A stretch of 64,000 bases of DNA from Actinomycetota bacterium. Its GTDB lineage: Bacteria; Actinomycetota; Acidimicrobiia; Acidimicrobiales; MedAcidi-G1. The position numbers and the translations under genes were made by a program. The notes beneath the pieces were generated by a model. It was not told where the DNA came from and made no database searches. It saw only the letters and a list, made by a program, of their open reading frames with translations. The stretch spans positions 17,375 to 81,374 of the forward strand of contig JAZADN010000047.1 of the NCBI GenBank assembly GCA_036123585.1, in the 5' to 3' direction. The stretch's first letter is position 1. The number at the start of each line of letters is the position of its first letter. Below, one piece after another: positions 699 to 50,757 of the stretch.

Positions 699-2006
699 GT
701 GATGAGTGAGCATCATGTGGTGATCTCGGCCGACACGCACTGCGGGGCCGACCTGTGGGACTACAAGGAGTACCTGCCGTCGAGGTACCACGAGGACTTC
801 GACATCTGGGCCAAGGGCATCAAGGAGGGCGAGCGTCGGACGGCCGAGGCGTTCAAGGACGCCGAACGCTCCCCGCTGAACGTCGGTGTCGACGGCGATC
901 CGGCCGTGGACGGCAACCGTAACTACGACTCCGACCGGCGCTTGCGTGAGCAGGCAGCTGATGGCGTGGTCGCCGCGGTGCTGTTTCCCAACACCCAACC
1001 CCCCTTCGCCCCGGCGGCGGCCAGCCAGTTCGAGGCCCCGGCCTACAGCGACGACATGGACCACCGGTGGGCAGGCCTGAAGGCGCACAATCGCTGGCTG
1101 CTCGACTTCGTGTCGCTGGCTCCCGAGCGGCGAGCCGGCATCTGCCAGATCTTCCTCGGGGACGTGGAAGGCTCGGTGGCCGAGATCGAGTGGGCGGCCG
1201 AAAACGGCCTGCGGGGTGGGGTCCTCGTACCCGGTACACCGCCCGACTCGCCCTTCGAGCCGCTGTACGCCAAGGATTACGAGCCCATCTGGGCGGCTGC
1301 AGAGGCCTGCGGAATGCCGCTCAACCACCACTCCGGCGGGGCGACACCCAGTTTCGGCAACCACTTTCCGGCCTCGCTGGCCATGTTCATGCTCGAGGTC
1401 ACCTGGTGGAGTCAGCGGGCCCTTTGGCACCTCATGTTCTCTGGCGTGTTCGAACGGCACCCCAACCTCCAGTGGGTCAACACCGAGAGCGGTACGGCCT
1501 GGGTACCTGAGACGCTGGCCAAACTGGACTCATTCCACGAGCGGATGAAGTACTCGGAGTACGGCTCGGAGGCCATCTTTGGCGGCATGGCAGTGGCCGG
1601 GATGTCGCTGAAGCCCAGCGAGTATTGGCAGCGCCAGTGCCACGTCGGCGCCAGCTTCCTTCGGCCCAGCGAGACCGAAGTAGTGCGCGAGATCGGTGTC
1701 GACAAGGTCATGTGGGGCTCCGACTACCCGCATATCGAGGGCTCGCATCCCTACACCGACGAGCACCTGCGCCTCACCTTCGGACGGATGACCGAAGATG
1801 AGACGACCAGGCTGTTGACCACGAATGCGGCACGGTTGTACCGGTTCGACGTGGCGGCCCTGCAGGCCCTGGCCGACGAGCACTGTCCGACCAAGGCCCA
1901 CGTGGCTTCGGGCATCGACTACGCCGAGGTGCCCGACACCGGCAAGGGCTGCCCGGGTATGGCACCGCAGAACCAGGTGCCCGCGGTACCGATCGCAGTC
2001 GGCTGA
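699..2006 (+). CDS. amidohydrolase-family metal-dependent hydrolase
   Basis: 435-aa ORF with GGAGG-like RBS (gagggaaggag) upstream. Motif WGSDYPHIEGSHPYT. Start is GTG 699 or ATG 702. Confidence 0.8.
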   Translation: MMSEHHVVISADTHCGADLWDYKEYLPSRYHEDFDIWAKGIKEGERRTAEAFKDAERSPLNVGVDGDPAVDGNRNYDSDRRLREQAADGVVAAVLFPNTQPPFAPAAASQFEAPAYSDDMDHRWAGLKAHNRWLLDFVSLAPERRAGICQIFLGDVEGSVAEIEWAAENGLRGGVLVPGTPPDSPFEPLYAKDYEPIWAAAEACGMPLNHHSGGATPSFGNHFPASLAMFMLEVTWWSQRALWHLMFSGVFERHPNLQWVNTESGTAWVPETLAKLDSFHERMKYSEYGSEAIFGGMAVAGMSLKPSEYWQRQCHVGASFLRPSETEVVREIGVDKVMWGSDYPHIEGSHPYTDEHLRLTFGRMTEDETTRLLTTNAARLYRFDVAALQALADEHCPTKAHVASGIDYAEVPDTGKGCPGMAPQNQVPAVPIAVG

Positions 2007-2917
2007 TGGAACCCGCATCGGAGGGCCTGGAGGCCCTGGAGGTGACGGGTTCGGTTGCCGTGGTCACTGGTGGGGCCAACGGCATCGGCCGAGGAATCGT
2101 CCGAGCCCTGCTGGAGGCCGACGCCACCGTCGTGGTTGCCGACGTCGAGCAGGACGTGCTCGACACCACCGTGGCCGCACTGTCGGCCACCTACCCGGGA
2201 CGTATCAGCGGCGTGGTCACCGACGTCTCCGACGAGGCTTCCACCGACGAACTGGCCGCCCACGTCTTTGCTGCACACGGACGTTGCAACCTGCTGTTCA
2301 ACAACGCTGGTGTGGGCTCCGGCGGAGGCGGACGCATGTGGACGCATGAACCCAACGATTGGCGCTGGTGCTACTCAGTGAATGTGTTCGGCGTGGCCAA
2401 TGGGATCATGTCGTTCGTGGGCCGGATGTTGGAGTCCGGAGAGCCCGGCCACGTGGTCAACACCTCGTCGGGCGACGGCGGCTTCGCCCCGGTGCCCAAC
2501 GCTGGCGTGTACGCCTCTTCGAAGGCTGCGGTCAGTTGTCTCACCGAGGCGTTGGCCCACCAGCTGGCCGAGGACTCCGACCGGGTTGGGGCGTCGGTCT
2601 TCTACCCGTCCGGCGGTCTGATGGACACCGGCCTGTTTTCCTCGCACCGGAACCGTCCGGCCGAGCTAGAGCGGGTAAGGGGCGGGACCGGCCGGTCATC
2701 GATGACCTTCCAGCAGATGAAGGACCTGCTGGAGAAGGCCGGCCGCGATGTGAAGGTCGCCGATCTCGACGAGCTGGGCCGCTGGGTGGTCGAGTGCACC
2801 GCCCAGCGGCAGTACATCATCGGCCGCGACCTGGATCACACCGTCGACCTGCTGCACCGCCGGGCCGACGCCATCGGGGCTCTGGACCTGCCGCCCCACC
2901 ACCAGATGGGGCTCTGA
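2006..2917 (+). CDS. SDR-family oxidoreductase
   Basis: TGGANGIGRG Rossmann motif, NNAG, and YASSKAA (Tyr-x3-Lys). Start overlaps the upstream stop (TGATG). Confidence 0.85.
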   Translation: MEPASEGLEALEVTGSVAVVTGGANGIGRGIVRALLEADATVVVADVEQDVLDTTVAALSATYPGRISGVVTDVSDEASTDELAAHVFAAHGRCNLLFNNAGVGSGGGGRMWTHEPNDWRWCYSVNVFGVANGIMSFVGRMLESGEPGHVVNTSSGDGGFAPVPNAGVYASSKAAVSCLTEALAHQLAEDSDRVGASVFYPSGGLMDTGLFSSHRNRPAELERVRGGTGRSSMTFQQMKDLLEKAGRDVKVADLDELGRWVVECTAQRQYIIGRDLDHTVDLLHRRADAIGALDLPPHHQMGL

Positions 2918-2963: not shown

Positions 2964-3842
2964 TCACCGGGAATGGGCGCCTGAAAGGCTGGTCGCCAGG
3001 CCTTCGTCGTTGGCCGGACGGCTGCGGGACAAAAACGCTCCAGCGTCGGCCAGGACGAACTGCCCGGTCACGCACCGGGCTAGGTCGCTGGTCAGGAAGA
3101 CGGCCATGCGGGCCAGTTCGTCGTGGTCGACCATGCGCCGTAGCGGTGTCGACGCCACCAGAGCGGCCACGCGGTCCTCGGTGAACGCAGCGGCCACCGT
3201 CTCGGTCAGCGTGGTGCCCGGTGCCATGGCGTTGACCCGTATCCCTTCAGGGCCCAACTCGACGGCCATGGTGGTCACCAGATGGTTGAGGGCTGCCTTG
3301 GCCGCCGCATAGGCGCTGTTGTAGGGCGCCGGACGGGTGGTCTCGCCGGACGTCACGAAGAGGATGACGCCGTCGCCCGATCCGTCGGCGGGGCGACCGT
3401 CCTCGGAGCGGGCCAGCATCGCCTCGGCAGCGGCACGACCGCACAGAGCAGCCTGCACAAGGTTCTGGTCGACGATGTCGCGCCAGTCATCGCCCCAGGT
3501 GTCGGTGAACGGCCGGGGTCGCCGACCTTTCGGGAGCATCCCCACGTTGGCCACGGTCACGTCGAGCCTGCCTAGGCGGTCGACGGTGGTCGCCACCATG
3601 GCCTCCACAGCCTCATCGTCCCGGCAGTCCGCAGGCACGGCCACTGCGGAACCGGTCCCCTTCTCGGCCTCCGCTTCGGCGTTGATCTCCGAGGTGACGG
3701 CCTCGGCTCGCTCGGGGACTAGATCGTTGACGGCCACCGCGGCGCCGGAACGGGCCAGCCAACGGGCGATCTCCCGACCGATGCCGGCGCCCGCACCGGT
3801 GACCAGCGCCCGCCTTCCCGCGTGGTTGATCGAGATGCTCAT
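2964..3842 (-). CDS. SDR-family oxidoreductase (last gene of the UGSC operon)
   Basis: VTGAGAGIGREIA and YAAAKAAL motifs. Its ATG overlaps the UGSC gene stop (ATGA at 3839-3842). Confidence 0.85.
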   Translation of the reverse strand: MSISINHAGRRALVTGAGAGIGREIARWLARSGAAVAVNDLVPERAEAVTSEINAEAEAEKGTGSAVAVPADCRDDEAVEAMVATTVDRLGRLDVTVANVGMLPKGRRPRPFTDTWGDDWRDIVDQNLVQAALCGRAAAEAMLARSEDGRPADGSGDGVILFVTSGETTRPAPYNSAYAAAKAALNHLVTTMAVELGPEGIRVNAMAPGTTLTETVAAAFTEDRVAALVASTPLRRMVDHDELARMAVFLTSDLARCVTGQFVLADAGAFLSRSRPANDEGLATSLSGAHSR

Positions 3843-4381
3843 CGTGCCCTCCCTTCCGCCGTATGGCCCCCGGTCAGCAGGGCCAGCACCTCATCGACCA
3901 CGCCGTCGGCGCGACGTCGGATTTCGTCGGGATCGACGCCGCCGATGGGGTGGGCCACCGACACCATCCGCAGGTCGGGAAGGCCGAAGTCGGCAGCTGT
4001 CCGGGTAGCCAGGTCGCTCAGGGCGCTGGTGGCCACCAGCACGGTGGGTCGACCGGCCTGCTCGAGGTGGATTGAGTCGTGGACACTCCACGACGTGCAA
4101 CTCCCTCAATCGGCAGTGCCGGTGAGGATGACGTCGACCTCCTCGGCCAATAGGCCGAGGACTTGGTCCTCACAGGCGGTGGCCGCGTTCTTGGTCTCGG
4201 TGCGGACCACGGTTGCTCCGGTGCGGTCTGCCAGCCTTTCGGCGAGTTGCCCCAGGAGCACGTCGGCGTTGGGCTTTCGGTTGTCGAGGATGCCGATACG
4301 CCGTCCGGCTAGGACCGTTGGCGAGGGGGCCAACTCGGCCGGTGGCTGGGCGAAGCCTCCATCAGGTCGGTAGATCAGCAC
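3839..4381 (-). CDS. UGSC-motif selenoprotein (180 aa, in-frame TGA = Sec at codon 92)
   Basis: ORF fragments 4106..4381 and 3839..4042 are in the same frame (339 nt apart). They are joined by TGA (4106-4108) plus 21 sense codons. Read-through gives ...VILTGTAD-U-GSCTSWSVHDSIHLEQAGRPTVLVATSAL... The downstream fragment has no ATG or RBS of its own. selA, selB and selC are present in the window. Confidence 0.8.
4076..4094 (-). promoter_or_regulatory. candidate bacterial SECIS hairpin
   Basis: On the mRNA: UGA + 11 nt (GGGAGUUGCAC), then GUCGUGG-AGUGU-CCACGAC. This is a perfect 7-bp stem with a 5-nt loop containing GU. Confidence 0.55.
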
Positions 4382-5439
4382 GGTCGGCCTTCCGGTTCTT
4401 GAATGGGAAGGGTGACGCTGCGAGTCATACCCCAGCTGGGGACCACAGAGCTGTGTTTCCCTGGCCCGCCGACGACCATGGTCCGCACGTTGTCGGGGTG
4501 CTCCGTCATGGGCACCAGTTCATCGTCGGCCAACTGATCCATCCACGAAGCCCAGGCCCGTAGGCCGAAGGCCCGCTTCAACTCGCCGGCCGGCAGCCGG
4601 GCCCTCTGGAACAGGTAGGACGACACGTCGCGGCGCGACCAGCCGGCGGCCGCGCAGGTGGCGGCGTGCTCGGGGCACAGCAGCACGAAGAACTCGCCCT
4701 GGCTGATGCAGGCGTTGTTCTGGGCGGTGGTGGCCATGGCTGACGCCACCTTGTCGAGGATGCGGGCTGGGTCGTCGGACTCCATGTCGTGCACGTTGTG
4801 GGGAGCCTCACCGCAGTGGACGGTCACCGCCGAGGGGGCCTCCATGCCGATGGCGGATGGGTAGAGAGGCCACGGCGAGGCGTCGGCGTTCTCGGCCACG
4901 CAGAGTCCATACTTGGCCGGGCCTCCCTGGGTTGAGGCATCGCCGTCACCTGGGATGGCTCCGGCCACGTGGAGGAGCACCAGCCGCAGGGCCCGACCGG
5001 TGGTGGCGTTGGCCCGGTTGCCGGGTCCGAGGGCACCGCGGCCGCCGTTGTAGCCGCCGCTGCGGGCCACCTCGCCGTGGACCACCACCAGGGGCGCCAC
5101 GTTGTGGGTGGTGGCGTTGACACCCCGCAGGTTCACCTCAGGGCGGGCCAGGGCCCGCACGGCGGCGACCAGGACCGGCAGGTGTTCGGGACGACAGCCA
5201 GCCATCACCGCGTTGACGGCCAGGGTCCGTCGGGTGGCTTCGCCAAAACGGGGAGGGAGGACGGCCACCACCTCGTCGGGGTCGGTTCTCGGACACCCGA
5301 GGAGCATGGCGTCGACTCGTTCGGTGGTGGGGGCGACCACCGGCAGTCCGTCGCCCCAGCCGTGCTCAGCCATGGCATCGATGAGGTCGGCGTCATCGTC
5401 TACTTGGAGCAGGTCCTCTGAAAAGATGTCTACAGTCAT
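4375..5439 (-). CDS. conserved hypothetical protein, first gene of the UGSC operon
   Basis: 354-aa ORF with high-GC3 coding look. I recognised no family motif (N-terminus ...HGWGDGLPVVAPT...). Its TGA stop overlaps the GTG start of the UGSC gene by 7 nt. Confidence 0.7.
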   Translation of the reverse strand: MTVDIFSEDLLQVDDDADLIDAMAEHGWGDGLPVVAPTTERVDAMLLGCPRTDPDEVVAVLPPRFGEATRRTLAVNAVMAGCRPEHLPVLVAAVRALARPEVNLRGVNATTHNVAPLVVVHGEVARSGGYNGGRGALGPGNRANATTGRALRLVLLHVAGAIPGDGDASTQGGPAKYGLCVAENADASPWPLYPSAIGMEAPSAVTVHCGEAPHNVHDMESDDPARILDKVASAMATTAQNNACISQGEFFVLLCPEHAATCAAAGWSRRDVSSYLFQRARLPAGELKRAFGLRAWASWMDQLADDELVPMTEHPDNVRTMVVGGPGKHSSVVPSWGMTRSVTLPIQEPEGRPC

Positions 5440-5491: not shown

Positions 5492-6103
5492 ATGGGCATG
5501 GCGGCACGTCGCGGGGTCACGGCTGAACAGGTGGTCGAGGCCGCGCTTTCCCTGTTGGACGAGGCCGGGCGACTCGATGCAGTGCGTCCCGCGTCGGTGG
5601 CCGGACGGCTCGGCATCCGCAGCCAGTCGCTTTATGCCCATGTGGACGGCGTTGACGGCCTGCGGCGCCTGCTCGCTCTGCGGTGTCTCAGCGACTTGTC
5701 CGAGGTGGTCACGATGGCTGCCGTCGGCCGGTCGGGGCGTGACGCCGTGGAGGCCATCGTCCGGGCTCAACTCGATTTCGCGCTCGTCCATCCAGGTCGG
5801 TCCGAGGCCGCCCTCCACCCGCCGGGTGACGACCCTGATCTGGCGGTGGCCATCGACAGGGCCGGCGGTCCACTTCGCACCGTTCTGGCCAGCCTCGGTC
5901 TCGATGACGAAGCCCGGGTCCACTGGGTCCGGCTTCAGCTGGCCCTGACTGCGGGCTATTCGTCCCTGGTTCGAGACGGTCGCCTCACCCTGTCCCCGGA
6001 ACCGTCGACCACCGTCGACCACCTGGTGGCGGCGATGCTCGATCAGCTGCCCGACTTGTCATCCGGCCAGCCTCCTATCGGACAAGAGATCGCTCGCATA
6101 TAG
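5492..6103 (+). CDS. TetR/AcrR-family transcriptional regulator
   Basis: N-terminal HTH region (VTAEQVVEAALSLLDEAG...VAGRLGIRSQSLYAHV). Divergent from the UGSC operon. The start may be the second ATG at 5498. Confidence 0.8.
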   Translation: MGMAARRGVTAEQVVEAALSLLDEAGRLDAVRPASVAGRLGIRSQSLYAHVDGVDGLRRLLALRCLSDLSEVVTMAAVGRSGRDAVEAIVRAQLDFALVHPGRSEAALHPPGDDPDLAVAIDRAGGPLRTVLASLGLDDEARVHWVRLQLALTAGYSSLVRDGRLTLSPEPSTTVDHLVAAMLDQLPDLSSGQPPIGQEIARI

Positions 6104-6223: not shown

Positions 6224-7636
6224 ATGCGACGACTGATGAGCATTCGGATCGGTGCGCTGCTGGCGATCGCTCTGGTGGCCGCGGCCTGCGGTGGAGGGGA
6301 GTCGGCCGACCCGGCGCCGACCACCGCAGTCCCTACAACGGCTGCTCCGACCACGACGGCTGCTCCGACCACCACTGAGCCGCCCGACGAGCCGCTGGTC
6401 ACCACAACCACCGCACCGGTCGAGACCACGACGACCACGACCATCGTCCTCACCGACTCGTTCCGCGGTGTCACGGCTGAGACCATCAAGCTCGGGTTCG
6501 CTTCGATCGACTTCGAGTACTTCAACGAGACCTTTGGCTTCAACCTCACCTATGCGAACTACGACGACACGGTCGACGTGTATGTCGAGTACATCAACGC
6601 GACGGGAGGGATCGTCGGACGGATGGTCGAAGTTGTCCACGCCCACTTCCTGCCCGTCGGCCCGGTGACTGCCGAGGCGGCCTGCATCGAACTCACCCAG
6701 GACCACCAGGTGTTCGCCGTAATGAACGGATTCGCCGGGCCCGGCGCCGAAAACGTCAACGCCTGCTTCAGTGCCACCTACGACACAATTCTGGTGGGTG
6801 GTAAGCCGACCCCAGAGCAACTCGAGCAGTCGACCGCTCCATGGATCTCCTACGACATCAGCCTCGGACGCCGTGGTCGGGCCTTCGTGAATCTGCTGGA
6901 GGAGACAGGAGAACTCGGTGGCCTTGGACCGGTCATGGTGTTGGGCGCCAATGTCGAGTACGAGCCGATGATGGCCGATGTCAAGGATGCATTGTCCTCT
7001 GCGGGAGCCGAGGTGCCGATCTCCGTGGCTAACCCCGACACGGGCGACGAGACGGCGACGATCGCTTACCTCGAGGTGCTCCTCGAGCGAGCCCGTGGGG
7101 AGGGCGTGTCGACGATCTTCGTGGTGGGCGAGGCCGAATACGCCCTGCAGTACCTGTTCAGTATGGGCGACGAGTTCACCGTGCTCATCCTCAATGGCGA
7201 CTCGGCGAACAGTTGGGCCACCGCGCCCCCCGAGGGCATCGAGCGGTCGGGTCGCCTGCTAACCAACAAGTCCTTCGAATCGCGTGGGGACGCTGACGTG
7301 GCCGACTGCCTGGCCATCGTTGAGGCCGGACTCGGCCACGAGGTTCTGTCCCCCGACCTGCTGCAGGAAGGTGAGAAGAACTACTGGGCTGCCCTGCAGA
7401 ACACTTGCAAGTCGTTCGAGTTGTTCCGCCATATCGCCACGGCCGCCGGGCCTGACCTCACCAACGACTCGTTCCGGACCGCAGCCGAGGCGTTGGGTGC
7501 GTTTTCGTTCACCGGCGTGCCCTATGCCTCGTTGGGGCCGGGCAAGGCAGATGCCCGCGACACCCTGAGCCTCGCCGAGTGGGACCACGAGGCCGGAGTC
7601 TGGATGGCGCTTTCGCCTCCGGTCAACGTCCGCTGA
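6224..7636 (+). CDS. ABC-transporter substrate-binding lipoprotein (branched-chain amino acid type periplasmic binding fold)
   Basis: Signal peptide plus lipobox (LVAAACGGG) and a Thr/Pro-rich linker. The family assignment rests on overall resemblance only. Confidence 0.6.
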   Translation: MRRLMSIRIGALLAIALVAAACGGGESADPAPTTAVPTTAAPTTTAAPTTTEPPDEPLVTTTTAPVETTTTTTIVLTDSFRGVTAETIKLGFASIDFEYFNETFGFNLTYANYDDTVDVYVEYINATGGIVGRMVEVVHAHFLPVGPVTAEAACIELTQDHQVFAVMNGFAGPGAENVNACFSATYDTILVGGKPTPEQLEQSTAPWISYDISLGRRGRAFVNLLEETGELGGLGPVMVLGANVEYEPMMADVKDALSSAGAEVPISVANPDTGDETATIAYLEVLLERARGEGVSTIFVVGEAEYALQYLFSMGDEFTVLILNGDSANSWATAPPEGIERSGRLLTNKSFESRGDADVADCLAIVEAGLGHEVLSPDLLQEGEKNYWAALQNTCKSFELFRHIATAAGPDLTNDSFRTAAEALGAFSFTGVPYASLGPGKADARDTLSLAEWDHEAGVWMALSPPVNVR

Positions 7637-7731: not shown

Positions 7732-7821
7732 TGGCGGAAGGTGTGGGATTCGAACCCACGGTGACCCGGAGGCCACAACGGCTTTCGAGGCCGCCCCATT
7801 CGTCCGCTCTGGCAACCTTCC
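7732..7821 (-). tRNA. tRNA-Ser (anticodon CGA)
   Basis: Reverse complement reads GGAAGGT...CGGC-CUCGAAA-GCCG..., with a long variable arm, GTGGGTTCGAATCCCAC T-arm, ACCTTCC-G-CCA end. 90 nt. Confidence 0.9.
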
Positions 7822-8552: not shown

Positions 8553-8660
8553 GTGGCGGCCAGGTGATCTGCGGCACTCCGGGGATTCCGCTGAGAGCTG
8601 CTGCCTTCCGGCCCTGACTCGGTTCACGGGTCCCGGTCGCACAGGACCCGACCGCCACAC
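8553..8660 (-). ncRNA. ffs: signal recognition particle RNA (small/4.5S type)
   Basis: The minus strand contains GAGUCAGGGCC-GGAA-GGCAGCAGCUC, the conserved helix-8 motif with a GNRA tetraloop. The 5' GUGGCGG pairs with the 3' CCGCCAC. The ends are approximate. Confidence 0.75.
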
Positions 8661-8722: not shown

Positions 8723-8812
8723 GGAGGGATGCGAGAGCGGACGATTCGGCACGCCTGGAACGCGTGTGTGGCTTTACGGTCACCGTGGGTTCGAATCCCA
8801 CTCCCTCCGCCA
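8723..8812 (+). tRNA. tRNA-Ser (anticodon GGA)
   Basis: GGAGGGA...CACGC-CUGGAAC-GCGUG..., with a long variable arm, GTGGGTTCGAATCCCAC T-arm, TCCCTCC-G-CCA end. 90 nt. Confidence 0.9.
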
Positions 8813-18408: not shown

Positions 18409-19497
18409 ATGACCACGCCGCGCACGGCCACCCTCCGCAGGACCTTCCATCGGGTCGTCCCGACGTTCCTGCTGGTTGTGCTGGGGCCCGCGGCCTGCGG
18501 ATCGTTGGGGGGCGACGCTGTCCCGGGGCCGGCCGTCGAGGTCCCGACCACCATGGCGCTCGTGGTCTCGACCACCACGGTCACCGTTGATGAGGCTCGG
18601 AGTGGCTTCGTGGCCGACGTGGCCGCCGCCACCCCGATCCTCGACGGCCTCACCGACGCTGACTTGGGATGCGTAGCCGACCGGGTGCTGGTCGACCTAG
18701 AGCCGGCCGAGGTGGTGGCTTTGACCCAGAACGGGCCCCGACCCGATCAGGCTGTCCTGGCCGTCGGTGCTCTCCAGGACTGCAACCTGGTGGTCCGCCT
18801 GGTGGCCCTAGGCATGGCGCAGACCATTGCCGAGGATCCCGACGCACAGCCCATGGACGTCGACTGCCTGCTCGAGGGGGTCGATGACGACGACCTCGTC
18901 CCGGTGCTCGAAGCCCGCTTCGCTTCGGGGTCGCTGGTCCTGGACGACCCCAAGGTCGACGACCTACTGGCCGACACCCCGATGATGGCCAACGCGGTGC
19001 GCTGCATGACCTACGCCATGCTGGACGCTGGCGTCGGTACCCCGGCGGTGTGCGCCGGCCTGGCCGACCGCCTCGGCGACATGATGGCCATCCTGCTGGC
19101 CATGGAACCCGGGCCCGGCGAGGAACCGGATCCGTTCGACCTGGTCGCCGTATTCCGGGTGACCGATGAGGTGTTCGACTGGCTGGCCGACGAGGTCCCC
19201 AGCGACCTGCTTGCCGATGCGGCGCTGGTGCGCGACACCAACCGTCGGATTGGGGACCTGATGGCCGAGGCCTTCCAGTACCTCAGGGGCGAGGACGCCG
19301 GGTCCCATCAGGAGGACCACGACGCACGGACGACGGCCTTCCTCGGGGCCATGGCCCGGATCGAGGCCGAGCTCTCGGAGAACCGGGTGGAAGTAAACGC
19401 GGCCAGCGCCCGCCTGCGTGGATGGACGGTGTCGACCTGCGGCGAGAAGTCGTCGATGCTCTTCGACCTGTTGGCCGGCGCGGGGGTTTCCGCCTGA
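18409..19497 (+). CDS. hypothetical lipoprotein
   Basis: Signal peptide with lipobox (VVLGPAACGS). Acidic mature part with no recognised domain. Confidence 0.6.
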   Translation: MTTPRTATLRRTFHRVVPTFLLVVLGPAACGSLGGDAVPGPAVEVPTTMALVVSTTTVTVDEARSGFVADVAAATPILDGLTDADLGCVADRVLVDLEPAEVVALTQNGPRPDQAVLAVGALQDCNLVVRLVALGMAQTIAEDPDAQPMDVDCLLEGVDDDDLVPVLEARFASGSLVLDDPKVDDLLADTPMMANAVRCMTYAMLDAGVGTPAVCAGLADRLGDMMAILLAMEPGPGEEPDPFDLVAVFRVTDEVFDWLADEVPSDLLADAALVRDTNRRIGDLMAEAFQYLRGEDAGSHQEDHDARTTAFLGAMARIEAELSENRVEVNAASARLRGWTVSTCGEKSSMLFDLLAGAGVSA

Positions 19498-29322: not shown

Positions 29323-29514
29323 TCAGACGGCGCAGGACATGTCAGCCCCGCAGCACAGGGGCGACTTGATCTTGCCGTGGCCGTTCGGGCACTCGGAGAT
29401 CTGCACCGTCGAGCCGTCGTCCTTTGTCAGGCTGGCGTCGGAGAGGGCCTCGTCGCAGTGTCCACAGGTGGCGTTGACGGACATGCCGCAGTTGCCGCAG
29501 GTATAGGTGGCCAT
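29323..29514 (-). CDS. small Cys/His-rich protein (63 aa, 8 Cys)
   Basis: MATYTCGNCGMSVNATCGHCDE...ECPNGHG...LCCGADMSCAV. Strong RBS GAGGAGGAcccATG. Ends 29 nt upstream of cbs on the same strand. Confidence 0.65.
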   Translation of the reverse strand: MATYTCGNCGMSVNATCGHCDEALSDASLTKDDGSTVQISECPNGHGKIKSPLCCGADMSCAV

Positions 29515-29689
29515 GGGTCCTCCTCGGTCCGGCCAGACCGCGCTCCAGACGAACGCGTACGATGATCTTCTCACAGGCCCTGAGTGTCCGACTGGTCGGA
29601 CGCGATCGTGCCCACCGAAGGGACGACTGCTAGGAACAGTTGCTTCCCGTCTGTCGTCCATCCGCCCCGCTGCCGAGGGGAGCGCGCCT

Positions 29690-31429
29690 GTGGTCCATCA
29701 TCACGTTCCGGCAAGTTTCGGTCCCGACGAGTCTGTAGTGGCTACCGGAGAGCAGGGCCAGCGGGCCCACCGTCGCCAGTTCGAGCATCGGGAGCGGCTG
29801 GAACGTCGCCTCTACGAGGTTGCCGACGGGGTCTGGTGCATGGTCGGGAACGGCTTGTCCAACCAGACCTTCGTGCAGGGACCCGAGGGCTTGGTGGTCG
29901 TTGACACCGGCGAGTCGGTGGAGGAGATGGCCGCCGCCCTGCAGGAGGTTCGGGTCCATACGTCGGCACCGGTGGTCGCCGTGCTCTACACCCACTTCCA
30001 CTACTGCAACGGCACGCAGGCTGTATTCGACGAGGCTGGCGGGCCGGTCCCGGTCTGGGCGCACGTCGGCGTCGAAGCCAACTTGCGGGTCCGGGCGTTG
30101 GAGCAGGGGCCGACGGCAGCCCGGGGGATGGTGCACCAGTTCTCGATGCTGCTCCCCGAGGACGGTCCGGACGGCCGGATCCAGGTCGGCTTGGGCCTTG
30201 AGTACCGAATGCCCGAGCACGCCCCGTACACCCATGGGTTCGTGGCCCCGTCCGACGTGATTGACTCGCCGACCACCACCACGTTGGCCGGCTTGCGGGT
30301 TGAGCTGGTGCCGGCGCCGTCGGACGCTGACGACAACCTGAACGTCTTCTTTCCTGACCTGGACCTGTGCGTCAACAACTTGGCTTGGCCGGCGTTGTTC
30401 AACGTGTTCCCCATCAGGGGAGAGTCGTACCGGGACCCGCAGGTCCTGTTGGCCGGCTTCGACGGGATCCTCGCCGCTTCACCCGAGTACCTGGTCTGCG
30501 CCCACGGCCCACCACTGAGCGGCCGGGCTGCGGTGACCGAAGCGGTGACCGGAGCGCGAGACGCCATCCAGTACTTGTGGGACCAGACGGTGCGTGGTGT
30601 CAACCGCGGCCTGACCCACGGTGAGCTGGTCGAGTTCGTGCAGCTACCTGACCATTTCGACGATTCCTATCTGACCCAGCAGAACTATGGACTGGTGGAG
30701 CACCACGTCCGACAGATCCACACCGGCTTGGTGGGCTGGTTTGACGGCTTCGAGGCGACTTTGTTCCCGCTGCCCACCGCCGAACGGTGCCGTCGCCTGA
30801 TCGAGGGCTTCGGTGGCCGGGACGAGGTAGCCGCCCGGGTGCGCGCTGCGTTGGAAGATGACGACCTGAGATGGGCCCTCGAGCTGGCTACCTGGCCGGT
30901 ACGCGCCGGCGTTGGAAACAACCCTGGCGGAGCGGAGTCCGACCGTTCCTTGCTAGCCGAGGTGCTGCGGACCGTGGGGCAGCGCACCACCTCGGCCAAT
31001 GTGCGCGGCTGGTGCTTGACACGGGCCCGTGACTTGGAGGGCCTTGTCGAGCTGGACCGGTACCGGGTGCACCGGTTCGGTCGGGGTCAGGTTTTGGCCA
31101 CCGAACCGGCTGCCACCATCGCCGCACTGAGGGTCCTCCTCGATCCTGAGCGAGCCGCAGGCGTGGACGACCATCTCCGCTGGCGGGTTGATACCGGGAG
31201 CGGCGAGGCGGTGTGTGGCCTCTGGGTTCGCAACCGGGTGGCCGTGCCAACCGACGGTTCCGGCGCCGAGTTGGAGTTGGCCCTGGCCCACGACGTTCTG
31301 GCCGACATGCTGTCCGGGCGTCGCTCCATGGCTGACGCCGTCGACGACGGTTCGGTAGTGGCGACTGGCGACTCGAACCGGATCGCCACCATCTTGGCCT
31401 GCTTCGAGGTCGATTCCTTTTCGAAGTAG
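29690..31429 (+). CDS. alkyl/aryl-sulfatase-like MBL-fold protein with C-terminal SCP2-like region
   Basis: Overall resemblance to SdsA1/BDS1-type alkylsulfatases (MBL core, dimerisation region, C-terminal sterol-carrier-like tail). The metal motif reads THFHYCNG rather than HxHxDH. Start GTG 29690 follows GAGGGGAG; the start is uncertain. Confidence 0.65.
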   Translation: MVHHHVPASFGPDESVVATGEQGQRAHRRQFEHRERLERRLYEVADGVWCMVGNGLSNQTFVQGPEGLVVVDTGESVEEMAAALQEVRVHTSAPVVAVLYTHFHYCNGTQAVFDEAGGPVPVWAHVGVEANLRVRALEQGPTAARGMVHQFSMLLPEDGPDGRIQVGLGLEYRMPEHAPYTHGFVAPSDVIDSPTTTTLAGLRVELVPAPSDADDNLNVFFPDLDLCVNNLAWPALFNVFPIRGESYRDPQVLLAGFDGILAASPEYLVCAHGPPLSGRAAVTEAVTGARDAIQYLWDQTVRGVNRGLTHGELVEFVQLPDHFDDSYLTQQNYGLVEHHVRQIHTGLVGWFDGFEATLFPLPTAERCRRLIEGFGGRDEVAARVRAALEDDDLRWALELATWPVRAGVGNNPGGAESDRSLLAEVLRTVGQRTTSANVRGWCLTRARDLEGLVELDRYRVHRFGRGQVLATEPAATIAALRVLLDPERAAGVDDHLRWRVDTGSGEAVCGLWVRNRVAVPTDGSGAELELALAHDVLADMLSGRRSMADAVDDGSVVATGDSNRIATILACFEVDSFSK

Positions 31430-31495: not shown

Positions 31496-31572
31496 TGGTC
31501 GGGTAGGCGGGATTTGAACCCACGACCTCCTCGTCCCGAACGAGGCGCGCTACCAACCTGCGCCACTACCCG
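31496..31572 (-). tRNA. tRNA-Pro (anticodon CGG)
   Basis: Reverse complement reads CGGGTAG-TG-GCGC...CCTCG-TTCGGGA-CGAGG...GTGGGTTCAAATCCCGC-CTACCCG-A-CCA. 77 nt. Confidence 0.9.
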
Positions 31573-32526: not shown

Positions 32527-33813
32527 ATGCGCGCCCGCTCCCTCGTCCGACGCCGCCTTCGGGTGTCGATCCTCGCCTTGGCCCTTGGGGCCGTGCTGCT
32601 CGGTACGACAGGCGGCGTCGCTGCGGGCCAGGAGGGCCACGAGACGGTGCCCGTGGTCGACGTCGTGGAAATCCATGGCCTCCTCGACCCGGTGCTCGTC
32701 GACATGTTGGCCGAGACCCTCGGAAGTCTCGACCCTGCCGAGACGGTGGCCCTGGTCCTCCAGGTCGACAGCACGGCCGCGGTGGTCGACGACACTGAAC
32801 TGATCCGGCTCGCAGAGTTGGTCGATGGCGCCCCCATCCCGGTCTCTTTCTGGGTCGGACCGTCTGGGGCGAAGGCCATCGGACCCATTGCCCGGCTGGC
32901 CGCCCTCGGTGACGATGTCGGCATCGCCCCCGGCGCTCACTTGGGTGCGTTCGGCGACCCGGTCCTCGGCGACCGGTACGGCACGCCGTTCGGCCTCCCC
33001 GTGGACACCGACCTTGTGGACCGGACCGTCGGCTACGACGAGGCGGTCGAGCTCGGGCTGGCTCGACCCTCGCCGGTTCTGCTTGAGCACCTGGTGGGGC
33101 TCCCTGGCTTCGAGGTTCACACAGTCACCGATGACGAGGGGACCAGTGTCCAACCGGTCACCCCGACCCGCTTTCGCCAGCTCGACGTGGTCGACCAGTT
33201 CTTCCACACCGTGGCCAGCCCGGCCGTGGCCTACCTCCTGCTGCTCGTCGGGATGGGCCTGCTCGTCTTCGAACTGTTTACGGCCGGCGTGGGCATTGCC
33301 GGGATGATCGGTGCTGGCTCGTTCCTCCTAGCCACCTACGGGCTGGGGGTTCTGCCGGCCAGGGCATGGGCGGTAGGCGTGCTGGTCTTCGCCTTCCTCG
33401 GCTTTGCCATCGACGTGCAGGCCGGGGTGCCTCGCCTGTGGTCGGTCATCGGTTCGATCGCCCTGGTCGTCGGATCGGTGTACCTATTCGAGGGCAGCTC
33501 GTTCTCGTGGATCACCCTGGTGGTCGGCGTTGTCGGCACCATCACTGGTGTGGTGGGCGGCATGCCGGCCATGCTCCGCACCCGGTTCTCGACACCGACC
33601 ATCGGTCGGGAGTGGATGGTCGGCGAGGTGGGCACGGTTGAGGGGCGCCTCGGCCCCAACGGAACGGTGCGGGTACGCGACGCCGTCTGGCGGGCCACGA
33701 CCAATCGGGCCACCCCGGTCGAGCCGGGGGGCGACATCCGGGTGGTGGCTGTAGACGGCCTGTGGCTGGAGGTCGAGCCCACCGAGGGCGCCGCCCGCGA
33801 CTACCGCCGGTAG
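32527..33813 (+). CDS. NfeD-family membrane protein (ClpP-like N-domain, TM block, C-terminal OB fold)
   Basis: Signal peptide, hydrophobic central block, and C-terminal GTVRVRDAVWRAT...GGDIRVVAVDGLWLEVEP. Confidence 0.75.
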   Translation: MRARSLVRRRLRVSILALALGAVLLGTTGGVAAGQEGHETVPVVDVVEIHGLLDPVLVDMLAETLGSLDPAETVALVLQVDSTAAVVDDTELIRLAELVDGAPIPVSFWVGPSGAKAIGPIARLAALGDDVGIAPGAHLGAFGDPVLGDRYGTPFGLPVDTDLVDRTVGYDEAVELGLARPSPVLLEHLVGLPGFEVHTVTDDEGTSVQPVTPTRFRQLDVVDQFFHTVASPAVAYLLLLVGMGLLVFELFTAGVGIAGMIGAGSFLLATYGLGVLPARAWAVGVLVFAFLGFAIDVQAGVPRLWSVIGSIALVVGSVYLFEGSSFSWITLVVGVVGTITGVVGGMPAMLRTRFSTPTIGREWMVGEVGTVEGRLGPNGTVRVRDAVWRATTNRATPVEPGGDIRVVAVDGLWLEVEPTEGAARDYRR

Positions 33814-34231: not shown

Positions 34232-35950
34232 TCAGGCCTCGGGTAGCCGCGGTCCGGCGATTCGGACGTCGCCGCGTCGCCGGGTCACTCCCGTGCCGTC
34301 TAAGTGGGCCAGGAGCGGCATGGCGTGCTTGCGCGTGTTGCCCGCCGCCTCCCGGAAGGCCGACACGGTGAACCCGTCCGGGGTCTCTGCCAGAAGTCGT
34401 GCCGCCAGGTGGCCTGCGGCCTCGATCGCTTCGGCGGCGTAGAAGATCCCCTCGGCCTCCACCACTTCACCCCGCCGGACCAACTCGCGCAGCTCACCCC
34501 GGTTCACTCCGTCTGGCTCCGGGGGGACGAAGGGTGAGGCGGCCAGCGCAGCCATGAACGGGTGGTCGGCTAGCGGGTCCACGGCATCGGCAGGTAGTAG
34601 ACGCCCGGCATCGATCACCGCATCGGCCAGCAGTTCCGAGCAGGCCCGTCGGAACGGGTCCAGGGCCGCCAGGTCCAGGCCCATCGGTCCGGCTTCGTCA
34701 ATCTCGGTTCGCAGGTCCTGGAGCGTGCAGTGCAGAACCTCGGGGTCGACCACCCATCGGCCGACATCCGGGTCGCGACGCTCGCCGGTCAGGCGTACCA
34801 AGTCGTTGACGGGGATCCAGCCCCGCTCCCGGACCACCCGGTCCACCGATCGGTCCGGTGCTGCACGAGAGGCTCGTTCCACTGGGTCGACGTCGAGGAC
34901 CTCACCGCCGCCTACCGTCTCGGCTCGGCCGGACTCCCGAAGCACGAACCTGTCACCGGGCAGCAGGGGCAGCGGCCGCGGCAGGTGGAGGCGGACCAGG
35001 CCCTCGGCGCCCGGCTCGAGGACGTCGGGTCCGAGGATTCGCATCCGGACCGGGTACTCGCCAGACCCTAGGTAGAGGACGTGCGCGCCACGCCGCGAGA
35101 CCGGATGGTCGAGCCGATCGAGGACCTTCAGCGAGGCGTCGACCACGGTGGCGTGGTGCCACTGGTCGGACTGGACCAGGACATCGCCTCGCTCCGCCCT
35201 GTCGTGGGCCACGCCGACCAGGTTCACAGCGCACCGGCTGCCTGGCGGCAGACGGTCGTGACCGGAGTGGTGGTTCTCTAGTGACCGGATTCGCACCGCT
35301 GTCCCCGCCGGATGGATGGCCAGTTCGTCGTCAACGGCCAGGACGCCGCCGGTCAGCGTGCCGGTGACCACCGTGCCCGCCCCCCGGGCCGAGAACGAAC
35401 GGTCGATCCACAGGCGTGGTCGGCCGTGGTCGGCGGCGGTGGGTGCTGTAGCCAGCAGGTCGTCGAGGGCGGCACGCAGGTCGTCGAGGCCCAAGCCGGT
35501 CGGAGCGTCGGTGCACACGAGAGGGGCGTCAGCCAGGAACGTGTCGGCCACCCGTTCCTCTACCTCGAGGCGGGCCAGCTCCACGAGGTCGTCATCGGCT
35601 GGACCGACCTTGGTGAGGGCGATTACCCCGTGCCGGATGCCCAGCAATTCAAGGATCCTGAGGTGCTCCTCGGACTGGGGCTTCCAGCCTTCGGTGGCAG
35701 CCACCACGAACAGGCAGGCGTCCACCGCGCCGACGCCGGCCAGCATGTTCTTGAGGAACCGGACGTGGCCGGGGACGTCGACCAGGGAGAGGGAGGCACC
35801 AGAGGCGAGGGTGGTCGTAGCAAACCCGAGGTCGATGGTCAGGCCGCGGGCCTTCTCCTCGGCGAAGCGGTCCGGGTCGGTGCCGGTGGGGGCCTCGACG
35901 AGGGTCGACTTGCCATGGTCGACGTGCCCGGCAGTAGCTACGACGTGCAC
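34232..35950 (-). CDS. selB: selenocysteine-specific translation elongation factor
   Basis: ATAGHVDHGKSTL G1 motif three residues after the proposed GTG start, DVPGH, EF-Tu-like domains, and a long C-terminal winged-helix extension. The track start (TTG 35983) is less likely. Confidence 0.9.
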   Translation of the reverse strand: MHVVATAGHVDHGKSTLVEAPTGTDPDRFAEEKARGLTIDLGFATTTLASGASLSLVDVPGHVRFLKNMLAGVGAVDACLFVVAATEGWKPQSEEHLRILELLGIRHGVIALTKVGPADDDLVELARLEVEERVADTFLADAPLVCTDAPTGLGLDDLRAALDDLLATAPTAADHGRPRLWIDRSFSARGAGTVVTGTLTGGVLAVDDELAIHPAGTAVRIRSLENHHSGHDRLPPGSRCAVNLVGVAHDRAERGDVLVQSDQWHHATVVDASLKVLDRLDHPVSRRGAHVLYLGSGEYPVRMRILGPDVLEPGAEGLVRLHLPRPLPLLPGDRFVLRESGRAETVGGGEVLDVDPVERASRAAPDRSVDRVVRERGWIPVNDLVRLTGERRDPDVGRWVVDPEVLHCTLQDLRTEIDEAGPMGLDLAALDPFRRACSELLADAVIDAGRLLPADAVDPLADHPFMAALAASPFVPPEPDGVNRGELRELVRRGEVVEAEGIFYAAEAIEAAGHLAARLLAETPDGFTVSAFREAAGNTRKHAMPLLAHLDGTGVTRRRGDVRIAGPRLPEA

Positions 35951-35954
35951 GTGC

Positions 35955-37313
35955 TCAGGAGACGGGGGTGGGAGCCGGGTCAAGGGCGGCCAGTGCCGCG
36001 GCGACCATGCAGTCGTCGTCCGGATGGACGGTCCTCAGGTCGACCACTGTGGCGTCGTCGGCTACCCGGGCGATGATCGGGGGCGAGCCGGCCCGGAACT
36101 CCGCCACCCGGTTACCGGCCATGACAAGGCCGGCCGATGGGATCTCCACACCGGGCAGGGTGCCGCCACCGGGGACGGCCACCGTGTCGGCGACCAGTTC
36201 TGGGTCGATTTGCTCAGCCCGGGCCCGGAGGTCGTCGACGGCGACGGTGGCCATTCGCCAGAACGGGATGGCTGACCCGTCCCGAGACAGATAGGCCAGT
36301 GCCAGGTCCTGCAGGGCGTGGAGTACCAGCGATCCGGGCCGCAGCGCCCGGGCCAGTGGGTGGGCGGCACAGGCGGCGATCAGGTCGGCTCGACCTGCGA
36401 CCACGCCAGCCTGTGGGCCACCGAGGAGCTTGTCGCCCGAGAAGGTGACCAGTCCGGCACCGGCTTCGAGGACCTGGCGGGCTGCCGGCTCGCCATCCAG
36501 CCAGCGGGGCGGTCCGTCGTCCAGCCAAGGACAGGTTGCGTCGAGCAGGCCGGATCCGATGTCGGCCACGACGGGTACACCGAGGCCCGCCAACTCGGCG
36601 GTTGTCGGTGACTCGGTGAAGCCCTCGATGCGGTAGTTGGACCGGTGGACCGACAGCGCGAGGGCGACGTCGGTGGACGGGTCGTTCACCGCGGCGGTGA
36701 AGTCGCCCACCCGGGTCCGGTTGGTGGTACCCACTTCCACCAGTTGGGCGCCGGACTGGGCCATAACCTCAGGGATTCGAAAGCCTCCGCCAATCTCCAC
36801 CAGCTCACCGCGGGACACGGCAACGCCCCGCCCGCGGGCCAGGGTGGCTAGCACCAGCAGCACGGCCGAGGCGCAGTTGTTGACCACCATCGCCGCTTCG
36901 GCCCCGCAGGCCCGGGCCAGCAGGGCTGGCGCCCGGTCCTGGCGGGAGCCGCGGGCACCGGTATCGAGGTCAAACTCGACAGTGGCGTAGCGACGCCCCG
37001 CGGCAGACCCGTCTTCTCTGGTGGGTCGGCCCCACGGGGCTCGGCCCAGGTTGGTGTGAAGTAGCACGCCGGTGCCGTTCACCACCTCTGTGAGCAGCGC
37101 CCGGCCAGTGGCGTTGGCTAGTGAGCGGGCCCGATCGGCCGTAGAGGCCGGGTCACCGGCCGCCACGGCGTCGGACACCGCGGTCCGGGCCGCGTCAACC
37201 AACAGGGGATGGGGGAGGCCGATGTCGGCCAGCGAGCGAGCCAGGCGATCGACGCTGGGCGGCCGGTCGTCGGTTCGGTCGGGGAACTCCTCAGGGGACG
37301 CGTCGGGGAACAT
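35955..37313 (-). CDS. selA: L-seryl-tRNA(Sec) selenium transferase
   Basis: 452 aa. N-terminal LPHPLLVD..., PLP-fold core with ...VTFSGDKLLGGPQAG (PLP lysine). Immediately upstream of selB. Confidence 0.9.
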   Translation of the reverse strand: MFPDASPEEFPDRTDDRPPSVDRLARSLADIGLPHPLLVDAARTAVSDAVAAGDPASTADRARSLANATGRALLTEVVNGTGVLLHTNLGRAPWGRPTREDGSAAGRRYATVEFDLDTGARGSRQDRAPALLARACGAEAAMVVNNCASAVLLVLATLARGRGVAVSRGELVEIGGGFRIPEVMAQSGAQLVEVGTTNRTRVGDFTAAVNDPSTDVALALSVHRSNYRIEGFTESPTTAELAGLGVPVVADIGSGLLDATCPWLDDGPPRWLDGEPAARQVLEAGAGLVTFSGDKLLGGPQAGVVAGRADLIAACAAHPLARALRPGSLVLHALQDLALAYLSRDGSAIPFWRMATVAVDDLRARAEQIDPELVADTVAVPGGGTLPGVEIPSAGLVMAGNRVAEFRAGSPPIIARVADDATVVDLRTVHPDDDCMVAAALAALDPAPTPVS

Positions 37314-39667: not shown

Positions 39668-40651
39668 TCAGATCGCGCTTCCGAGTGCGTCGGCCACCTC
39701 GGTGGCGTCCATGGTGAAGTGGAGCGCGGCGGTCACCTTGCCGTCGGCGTCGGCTGCTACCAGGCTGGGCTCGAAGGCCATCCCGAGGGCGCCCACCACC
39801 GGCGTCGGGGTGAAGTCCCCGGCATCGGGAGCCATGTAGACCTCGGCGTGGACCGCCCTCCAGTTCTCGCCGGCCGGCCGGGCGGCCAGGGCGTTGGCCA
39901 GCAGTCCGACGGTGGGTCCGCATACGTCCTGCTGGCAGAACCGCGGCGTTGATATCAGCAACGCAGTGGGTCCGCGTTGCTCGCGGGCATCTACCAGCGA
40001 CGAGGCGTGGAAGCGACAAGGTCCGGTGGCCAAGGTGCAGATCGGGTCCACACCGCGGGGGTCATCGATTGTCGGGGTTGCGACCGCGGGCAGCGGGTCG
40101 CCCAACTGGACGAGTGCCAGGTCGGCGGGATCGGCAAGGCGGAGGTGGTGGACGTCGGGCAGCGTGGTGCCTTCGACGGTGGCTTCCACCACGAAGTCGC
40201 CGGGATCGGGCGCTTGGAATCGGAAAGGGTAGTAGGGGGTGGCCTGACCATCCCCGTGGCGGGCCACCGAGGCCGAGGCGATGTCCGGTCCCGGGGCGCC
40301 GTTGGGGCCCACGGCGCGGAGCACCAGGCCGACGGCGTCGGGAGCATCGTCGATCATCGGCCAGCCGTCGTCGCCGAGAAGAACGTAGGGCGCGCGCTGG
40401 GGTGGTCCGGCGGCCAGGGCGGTGGATGCCACGTAGCCGTCGGCGAAGCGGGCTCCCAGTCGGCGAGATCCCATGGTGGAAGCGGGCGCCGTGGCCGAGG
40501 CTGCCGTGTCGGTCCCCACCGCGCCACCGCACCCAACCAGCAGGCCTGTCCCGGTGGCCGCAGCCAGCATGCCGAGGCCGGTGAGCACGTGGCGGCGGGT
40601 CGGGTCGGCCGGTGGTCGGGTCCCAGAGGAACGGGGAGAGCGGGGAGCCAT
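39668..40651 (-). CDS. Tat-signal lipoprotein of unknown function
   Basis: Twin-arginine motif (TRRHVLTGLG) followed by lipobox (LLVGCGG). Contains a C-x4-C pair (FCQQDVCGP). Confidence 0.6.
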   Translation of the reverse strand: MAPRSPRSSGTRPPADPTRRHVLTGLGMLAAATGTGLLVGCGGAVGTDTAASATAPASTMGSRRLGARFADGYVASTALAAGPPQRAPYVLLGDDGWPMIDDAPDAVGLVLRAVGPNGAPGPDIASASVARHGDGQATPYYPFRFQAPDPGDFVVEATVEGTTLPDVHHLRLADPADLALVQLGDPLPAVATPTIDDPRGVDPICTLATGPCRFHASSLVDAREQRGPTALLISTPRFCQQDVCGPTVGLLANALAARPAGENWRAVHAEVYMAPDAGDFTPTPVVGALGMAFEPSLVAADADGKVTAALHFTMDATEVADALGSAI

Positions 40652-40689
40652 CGACGACGACCGTACCGGTGACGGGGCACACTCAACGG

Positions 40690-50661: not shown

Positions 50662-50757
50662 TGGCGGAGGTGGACGGGAATCGAACCCGCCGGACGGGGA
50701 TCGCCCGTCCCACCCGCTTTGAAGGCGGGGGAGCCCACCAGGTACTCAGACACCTCC
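50662..50757 (-). tRNA. selC: tRNA-Sec (anticodon UCA)
   Basis: 96 nt. GGAGGTGT acceptor, 6-bp D-stem (GAGTAC/GGGCTC with one mismatch), anticodon arm CCCGC-CUUCAAA-GCGGG, 7-bp variable stem (GGACGGG/CCCGTCC), T-arm GCGGG-TTCGATT-CCCGT, and ...CCACCTCC-G-CCA end. Confidence 0.85.

Follow-up and report, generated by a model that had tools for sequence, protein, structure and literature searches.

A UGSC-family selenoprotein gene with a coding-region SECIS hairpin and a conserved partner gene in an Acidimicrobiia-type genome

This report concerns a stretch of 64,000 nucleotides from an Actinomycetota bacterium of the Acidimicrobiales (assembly GCA_036123585.1, contig JAZADN010000047.1), referred to below as the window, and a gene of the UGSC family of selenoproteins that it carries on its minus strand. 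Public annotation cuts this gene in two at an in-frame UGA. We conclude with high confidence, from comparison of sequences, that positions 4381..3839 form a genuine UGSC-family gene whose UGA is decoded as selenocysteine (Sec) with the help of a selenocysteine insertion sequence (SECIS) hairpin. The gene is a further member of an already described family and not a new kind of gene. What we add to the family is modestly new: a definition of its SECIS element, an obligate and uncatalogued partner, a flavodoxin-like predicted fold and a relationship to the selenoprotein GrdB.

The family has been known since the Sargasso Sea and Global Ocean Sampling (GOS) selenoproteome surveys, where it was called the 'UGSC-containing protein'. 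A 2016 survey of about 5,200 genomes recorded it in 26 organisms, and a 2026 review lists it, together with the model NF041046, as functionally uncharacterised. An earlier reading of this DNA from its letters alone (the first-pass annotation) had said that the family has no assigned function, and reviews up to 2026 still describe it in that way.

One reading frame interrupted by a single UGA

On the minus strand, positions 4381 to 3839 constitute a single frame of 180 sense codons, opening with a GTG start (4381-4379) and closing with a TGA stop (3841-3839). Its sole interruption is a TGA at codon 92 (4108-4106). Mechanical prediction yields two open reading frames (ORFs), 4106..4381 (91 amino acids) and 3839..4042 (67 amino acids, GTG start), which lie in the same frame, with the TGA and 21 sense codons between them. 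This is the arrangement from which the first-pass annotation had started, and its coordinates and translation were reproduced exactly. Read through, the peptide runs ...EEVDVILTGTAD-U-GSCTSWSVHDSIHLEQAGRPTVLVATSALSDL..., with ...TGTAD-U-GSCTSWSVHD around codon 92 (TGTAD-U-GSCTSWSVHDSIHLEQAGR across the residue itself), and the motif of the window protein is D91-U92-G93-S94-C95. The N-terminus, VLIYRPDGG, lines up with the starts of homologues. UGA still serves as a stop in this genome and has not been recoded globally, because the UGSC gene and the partner gene upstream of it (see below) both end in TGA.

The same sequence is found in the public metagenome-assembled genome (MAG) GCA_036251625.1 and in four other contigs from separate samples or assemblies. 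Public gene calls on this identical sequence give pieces of 91 and 65/67 amino acids, each of which matches the family model PF24696, just as had been predicted of automated annotation. The UGSC gene is thus a clear annotation case, a real gene cut in two by current gene callers.

Family membership and homologues

Placement in the UGSC family, which the first-pass annotation had proposed from the motif, holds above the curated cut-offs of two profile hidden Markov models (HMMs) over their full length. With U replaced by C before scoring, the 180-residue product reaches 141.1 bits against NF041046, 'UGSC family (seleno)protein' (cut-off 125; residues 26-170 on profile positions 2-147 of 147), and 166.9 bits against PF24696 (cut-off 25; residues 15-170 on profile positions 15-171 of 172). 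Both matches cover both halves of the read-through protein. The window protein has the family's length of about 180 amino acids and its D-U/C-G-S-C-T-S-W motif, and the family holds both Sec and Cys forms; no essential difference sets the window protein apart, and it is a member.

Thirty-one relatives, every one of them with PF24696, came from a search through 5.8 billion proteins. The full-length relatives are contiguous and read D-C-G-S-C where the window reads D-U-G-S-C, and the near-homologue alignments (A2, A3) show no variation at D91, C92, G93, S94 or C95. The fragmentary relatives break at the motif: P0021 and P0025 stop at ...TGTAD, P0030 begins just past the motif, and the contig of each has an in-frame TGA followed in the same frame by GSCTSWSVHD.... 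Full-length homologues carry Cys or Sec at codon 92, which the first-pass annotation had named as support. Ends at TGTAD, which it would have counted against read-through, occur only with a TGA, the downstream part being conserved and contiguous.

A genome scan limited to one genome per species gave 246 loci, and the best 80 were kept for all locus counts reported here. In these 80 the motif column holds TGA in 17 and TGC or TGT in the remainder. Over all retrieved loci, the codon-92 column is TGC/TGT in 57 and TGA in 24 (21 distinct sequences), and the peptide after the UGA is conserved. Leaving the window aside, 20 distinct loci have TGA in this column, with proteins that, for the genome loci, are 46-56% identical to that of the window. 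Since the UGSC HMMs match both halves of the product and these 20 loci share the TGA with a conserved downstream frame, the read-through frame goes beyond what chance would produce.

The TGA loci come mostly from MAGs annotated as Acidimicrobiia/Acidimicrobiales or as unclassified Actinomycetota; odd labels among them are Spirochaetales (L032) and simply 'bacterium' (L030). The Cys form is present in cultured Streptomycetales (Yinghuangia, Embleya, Streptodolium). The statement in the first-pass annotation that selenoproteins are uncommon in Actinomycetota overstates their rarity for this lineage, because Sec forms are common in the retrieved Acidimicrobiia-type MAGs (17/80 best loci).

A SECIS hairpin written into conserved codons

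Directly downstream of the UGA lies a stable hairpin (Table 1) whose stem starts 11 nucleotides past the UGA, at nucleotide 15 when the U of the UGA is counted as nucleotide 1. In E. coli, the upper stem-loop of the SECIS spans nucleotides 15-31 and likewise starts 11 nucleotides past the UGA; its apical loop holds G23 and U24 (PMC8659212). The hairpin of the window resembles the E. coli fdhF-type element in lying directly 3' of the UGA within the coding sequence, in its stem from nucleotide 15 and in its G23/U24 in the apical loop. Folding also gives an extended helix, in which a lower stem takes in the UGA region. This lower stem differs among relatives, and conservation backs only the upper hairpin.

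The hairpin overlaps the conserved peptide T-S-W-S-V-H-D, and its conservation was therefore tested against constraint on the protein. For this we compared synonymous sites in 21 distinct Sec-form sequences with those of 12 Cys-form genes encoding the same TSWSVHD peptide. In the Sec forms (n=21), codons 96-102 read ACG (19) or TCG (2), TCG, TGG, AGT, GTC, CAC and GAC (20) or GAT (1), while the spacer codons 93-95 of the same sequences are filled by 4, 6 and 2 different codons respectively. The Cys forms make other choices: codon 99 is AGT in 21/21 Sec forms and AGC in 12/12 Cys forms, codon 100 is GTC in 21/21 Sec forms and GTG in 8/12 Cys forms, and codon 96 is ACC in 5/12 Cys forms. AGT, whose T is U24 of the hairpin, is rare in this genome (6 AGT versus 36 AGC in eight sampled genes). 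The mean energy of the core hairpin is -12.2 kcal/mol in the Sec forms and -7.75 kcal/mol in the Cys forms. Such frozen and free synonymous sites within the same genes would be hard to explain otherwise than by a SECIS.

When all UGAs of the window were screened for an open frame on either side and a hairpin of this geometry, two sites came up, the UGSC site and one at 29573 (minus strand). The latter lacks coding-type G+C content at third codon positions (GC3) downstream, which leaves the UGSC site as the sole credible one in the geometry scan. A crude GC3-based filter for other read-through genes cannot exclude further selenoproteins, because it missed even the UGSC site. The SECIS signature, UGA-11 nt-GUCGUGGA-GUG-UCCACGAC (codons ACG-UCG-UGG-AGU-GUC-CAC-GAC), could be used to rescue split genes automatically.

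Selenocysteine machinery

The genes for Sec synthesis and insertion named in the first-pass annotation (selA, selB and the gene for tRNA-Sec) were all located in the window, each above its cut-off (Table 1). selA and selB overlap by 29 nucleotides (35955..35983). The tRNA-Sec gene stands about 13 kb from selAB, just beyond the end of an oppositely oriented group-1/2 sigma-70-type gene (49657..50601, +).

Some results weigh against Sec decoding through a SECIS. The P values of the synonymous-site comparison (Fisher 3e-9, Mann-Whitney 0.001) are nominal and uncorrected for shared ancestry. Compared with the fdhF-type element of E. coli, the stem in the window is fully paired over 8 bp, closes with a 3-nucleotide loop and is without the bulged U17. 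Rfam scans of the window and of positions 3800-4400 at E <= 10 gave chance matches only and no SECIS family. Finally, selD was absent from the 64-kb window by a motif scan and by NCBIfam scans of the larger ORFs.

Table 1. Features of the window bearing on the UGSC gene, with their coordinates and the evidence for each
Feature	Position	Strand	Evidence
UGSC family selenoprotein gene	3839..4381	-	Frame, translation, NF041046 and PF24696 matches, N-terminus alignment
In-frame UGA as selenocysteine U92, motif D-U-G-S-C	4106..4108	-	Cys column in homologues; TGA in 20 other distinct loci; hhalign alignment onto the GrdB Sec column
SECIS core: 8-bp stem GUCGUGGA/UCCACGAC, loop G23-U24-G25 at 4086..4084	4076..4094	-	Folding, conservation, E. 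coli geometry
Extended SECIS helix, lower stem pairing the UGA region with 4063-4075	4063..4108	-	Minimum free energy fold, z = -2.54 versus shuffles
Conserved 354-amino-acid partner gene, uncatalogued family	4375..5439	-	Stop overlaps UGSC start (GTGCTGA); 80/80 loci
Short-chain dehydrogenase/reductase (SDR) gene, third of the apparent operon	2964..3842	-	PF13561 and PF00106; ATG overlaps UGSC stop (ATGA)
TetR-family regulator gene, divergent, beside the operon	5492..6103	+	Precomputed PF13305 TetR_C_33 match on an identical public contig
selA, L-seryl-tRNA(Sec) selenium transferase	35955..37313	-	TIGR00474, 391.2 bits, cut-off 267.9
selB, Sec-specific elongation factor	34232..35983	-	TIGR00475, 277.5 bits, cut-off 242.25
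tRNA-Sec (selC), anticodon UCA, canonical	50662..50757	-	ARAGORN; Rfam RF01852, 67.5 bits, gathering score 47

Alternative explanations for the UGA

The absence of selD from the window would fit a different recoding, in which UGA is read as Cys or some other standard amino acid, either because tRNA-Sec is mis-acylated or because selenium is limiting; most homologues show that Cys is acceptable at codon 92. We consider this very unlikely. The window has a selA gene, with a score well over its cut-off, whose product turns Ser-tRNA(Sec) into Sec-tRNA(Sec). The tRNA-Sec is canonical, and selD may lie elsewhere in the genome.

A shade less probable again is that translation ends at UGA-92 and the two halves are made separately, the second from the GTG at 4042, to assemble as a split protein. 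Each fragment alone matches PF24696, and a start is available: the first-pass annotation had credited the downstream fragment with neither an ATG nor a ribosome-binding site (RBS) of its own, and while no RBS is evident by eye before 4042, the GTG there is a start that public gene callers use. Split translation would, however, leave untranslated the 21 codons between the TGA and GTG 4042, where conservation across the family is highest (GSCTSWSVHD...LE.AG.P). Every Cys form is contiguous, and the frozen synonymous sites are accounted for by a SECIS and not by a split gene. The peptide GSCTSWSVHDSIHLEQAGRPT would be expected from read-through and not from split translation.

A nonsense mutation, a sequencing error or a decaying pseudogene that yields no full-length protein, as the two ORFs of the gene callers and the metagenomic origin of the assembly might suggest, is scarcely credible when the identical sequence recurs in those four further contigs, the TGA keeps its column in 20 further divergent loci with the downstream frame and peptide preserved, a conserved SECIS follows the TGA and the Sec machinery is present.

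A conserved partner gene, adjacent or fused

The UGSC gene, read with Sec at codon 92, is the middle one of three overlapping minus-strand genes, standing between the partner and an SDR gene (Table 1). The overlap of the partner stop with the UGSC start suggests translational coupling. A partner homologue is found just upstream of UGSC in 80/80 of the best loci, at 57-70% identity (42-56% for UGSC itself), and in 76/80 the best partner high-scoring segment pair ends no more than 150 nucleotides upstream on the same strand. The other neighbours are less constant: an SDR homologue follows UGSC directly in 30/80 loci and lies no more than 5 kb away in a further 15, and TetR homologues occur near the UGSC-partner pair in about 9/80.

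Neither Pfam nor NCBIfam has a model that matches the partner, even with thresholds relaxed (Pfam E <= 10 for the window protein), and Pfam at E <= 1 on 50 diverse members brought up no recurrent family. Relatives of the partner are numerous, with more than 7,500 close matches and 4,971 cluster representatives at 50% identity. Among the 150 best representatives, 57 hold a UGSC domain in the same polypeptide. These comprise 24 complete fusions in the order UGSC-then-partner, 31 proteins that start at about position 103-141 of the UGSC profile, just past the Sec column, as a gene caller restarting after a UGA would give, and 2 proteins in the order partner-then-UGSC that end one column before Sec. 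Adjacency, joined by fusion in both orders, provides strong evidence that UGSC and its partner function as a single unit.

One representative among the 150, P0159 (695 amino acids), joins a partner domain (residues 13-353) to a Pyr_redox_2 domain of thioredoxin-reductase type that contains the motif C-A-V-C; this fusion may hint at the electron donor. P0117 (549 amino acids), also considered as a fusion, proved to be merely a mis-called N-terminal extension.

A fusion of UGSC to a domain named 'Unknown_1' was noted in the 2008 GOS paper (PMC2398784). This domain may be the 354-residue partner, or it may be a C-terminal extension seen in some Cys-form proteins (P0013, P0014, P0017, P0019, P0020, P0024), which measures about 90 amino acids and has a conserved C-A-E-C-V-M-P-R motif. 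One member with this extension matches NifU weakly (E = 0.005).

Several residues of the partner are kept down to 36% identity: D30-G-L-P, N76-A-V-M-A-G-C82-x-P84, T111 and G148-R149, and further along C180, E183, P189-W190, P256-x-H258 and G324-G325. Its AlphaFold 2 model is reasonably confident, with a predicted local distance difference test score (pLDDT) of 81.7 and a predicted template modelling score (pTM) of 0.84. No significant match came from searching PDB sequences with the profiles of UGSC and the partner; an Asp/Glu racemase fragment ranked first, at E = 0.07.

Predicted fold of UGSC and its relationship to GrdB

AlphaFold was run on P0001, a Cys homologue 58% identical to the window protein. 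The model is confident (pLDDT 90.5, pTM 0.86). Strands and helices alternate in it, with five of the strands running parallel; residue 92 falls in the stretch connecting strand 84-88 to helix 93-108, and C95 is in the first turn of that helix. Foldseek against the PDB matched the model to flavodoxin-like domains at template modelling (TM) scores of about 0.4-0.5. UGSC is thus predicted to be a flavodoxin-like alpha/beta domain and not a thioredoxin-like one. In the model, U92 would sit in the loop after strand 3 and C95 in the next helix, a typical placement of a redox-active or nucleophilic U-x-x-C pair.

The U-x-x-C motif also invites a simpler account, in which UGSC is a stand-alone thioredoxin-fold thiol:disulfide oxidoreductase, a general redox protein with no dedicated partner subunit. 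The 2008 GOS paper described it as having a 'likely Trx-like fold' (PMC2398784). That remark is contradicted by the five-strand parallel, flavodoxin-like model and by the absence of any thioredoxin from its top 50 Foldseek PDB matches. With a partner adjacent in 80/80 loci and 57 fusions favouring a dedicated partnership, and with a Sec segment homologous to that of GrdB, we judge the stand-alone account improbable.

The link to GrdB came from profile comparisons. In NCBIfam, 18/24 UGSC members weakly match the GrdB model TIGR01917, the visible matches falling at profile positions of about 301-398, and 12/24 match TIGR01918. An N-terminal GrdB motif, used as bait only, retrieved PF07355 proteins. 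Three grd operons (GrdE, GrdA, GrdB) served as the reference, with the Sec-containing C-termini of GrdB rebuilt to read ...DAVILTST-U-GTCTRCGATMVKEIERAGIPVVH...IPYPLGNP. The clostridial-type grdB genes of these loci (L088, L089, L090) show one frame change between codons ~146 and ~204, besides the Sec UGA near codon 350. It is probably a selection artefact from picking short N-terminal fragments, and the C-terminal frame alone was used.

An hhalign comparison of UGSC with the rebuilt C-termini gave a probability of 92.7% (E = 4.4e-7, 69 columns) and placed the Sec/Cys column of UGSC on the Sec column of GrdB, pairing D-C-G-S-C-T with T-C-G-T-C-T. Probabilities in the three controls stayed near zero: 0.2% for UGSC with the N-terminal domain of GrdB, and 0.1% for the partner both with that domain and with GrdE. 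UGSC is, by this profile alignment, a remote homologue of the Sec-bearing C-terminal segment of GrdB/PrdB. It is not a member of that family, and it falls far below the selenoprotein B cut-offs (15-22 bits versus 602 for TIGR01917, 13 versus 65.45 for TIGR01918, no match to PF07355).

UGSC shares with GrdB, GrdF, GrdH and PrdB a Sec in U-G-[ST]-C-T after a hydrophobic strand (V-I-L-T), the motif of GrdB being U-G-T-C. The downstream elements E-R/Q-A-G-x-P-x-V and H/Y-P-L/I-G are also common to UGSC and GrdB, as is a separate partner subunit encoded just upstream in the operon. The differences are equally marked. Only about 70 columns align and UGSC is without the N-terminal domain of GrdB; the UGSC partner is unrelated to the pyruvoyl subunit (GrdE/PrdA, PF09338); and the UGSC neighbourhood has no grdA, trxB or trx gene. 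UGSC organisms appear to be mainly environmental Acidimicrobiia-type bacteria and not Stickland-fermenting anaerobes. Cys82 of the partner (A-G-C) was considered as a GrdE-like pyruvoyl self-cleavage site and rejected, as the partner has no GrdE homology and the residue lies between two helices in the model.

A possible two-subunit selenoenzyme

These observations can be assembled into a mechanism. The SECIS hairpin would recruit SelB carrying Sec-tRNA(Sec), a step we infer, so that translation passes UGA-92. The hairpin is written into the codons for T-S-W-S-V-H-D. Sec-form genes, unlike Cys-form genes, retain the synonymous codons from which it is built, and U24 comes from the rare codon AGU. 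UGSC and the 354-residue protein encoded immediately upstream would then form a two-subunit enzyme, in which UGSC supplies the selenol/thiol and acts as the catalytic or redox subunit. The partner subunit may bind the substrate through its conserved Cys82, Cys180, His258, Glu183 and Arg149, and the selenol-thiol pair U92/C95 would attack or reduce the substrate held there. Each turnover would leave the pair as a U92-C95 selenenyl-sulfide, for the cell's thioredoxin system or a disulfide reductase to reduce again, none being encoded locally. The frequently adjacent SDR probably acts in the same pathway.

We would give this two-subunit redox-enzyme model of UGSC and its partner roughly an even chance of being right. 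A bolder proposal is that the pair, at times fused into one chain, is a widespread, unrecognised two-subunit selenoenzyme, whose Sec site shares an ancestor with that of GrdB/PrdB and whose partner subunit, of novel fold, holds the substrate. Such an enzyme would cleave bonds reductively in the manner of GrdB/PrdB or catalyse a related selenol-dependent reaction. This we put forward tentatively, as possible and rather unlikely.

Other observations tell against a redox enzyme of this kind. The C/U-G-S-C pair is absent from 14/24 complete fusions (P0162, P0163, P0190, P0207, P0214, P0217, P0218, P0241, P0242, P0251, P0254, P0257, P0258, P0296), which have, for example, ALCDSGVT or ADIGAAMSW. Because the UGSC domain persists in them without C-x-x-C, the case for the U/C pair as a universal catalytic centre is weakened. 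No thioredoxin or TrxB gene was found within 5 kb in any of the 80 loci, and the reductase fusion is a single one. The analogy with GrdB is limited to the Sec segment, because the partner is unrelated to GrdE and has no convincing relative. Foldseek on the partner model gave only TM scores of 0.2-0.28, to class I fumarate hydratase and to Toblerone-fold cyclic amide hydrolases, which we do not take as homology.

Through the constant pairing or fusion with one partner family, the flavodoxin-like predicted fold and the GrdB/PrdB link, what was an orphan motif becomes a candidate two-component enzyme that experiments can approach, with specific residues to mutate.

Other features of the window

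The flanks of the operon include, besides the divergent TetR gene, an Amidohydro_2 (PF04909) gene and a second SDR gene (699..2917, +). Just beyond the window, the source contig has a further gene each of the Amidohydro_2 and TetR types. Together the flanking genes resemble a small catabolic cluster, whose conservation across other loci is loose.

Four ORFs with coding-type GC3, all on the plus strand, had no NCBIfam match at the thresholds used: 6224..7636, 18409..19497, 29507..31429 and 32527..33813 (470, 362, 640 and 428 amino acids). A separate ORF, 40612..42294 (+, 560 amino acids), matches over residues 33-177 the [2Fe-2S] small-subunit region of xanthine dehydrogenase-type molybdenum hydroxylases, and its remaining ~380 residues have no match listed at E <= 1e-10. 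Against the N-terminus of the 'selenium-dependent xanthine dehydrogenase' model it reaches 115 bits with a cut-off of 830, and it is not a member.

Just before window position 1 lies a gene for a 941-amino-acid molybdopterin oxidoreductase (Molybdop_Fe4S4, Molybdopterin, Molydop_binding), called as one intact product (L084 12916..13065, JAZAJE010000060.1). RNA genes at 8555..8653 (-), 7732..7821 (-), 8723..8812 (+) and 31496..31572 (-) comprise a bacterial small signal recognition particle RNA (72.9 bits), two tRNA-Ser and one tRNA-Pro.

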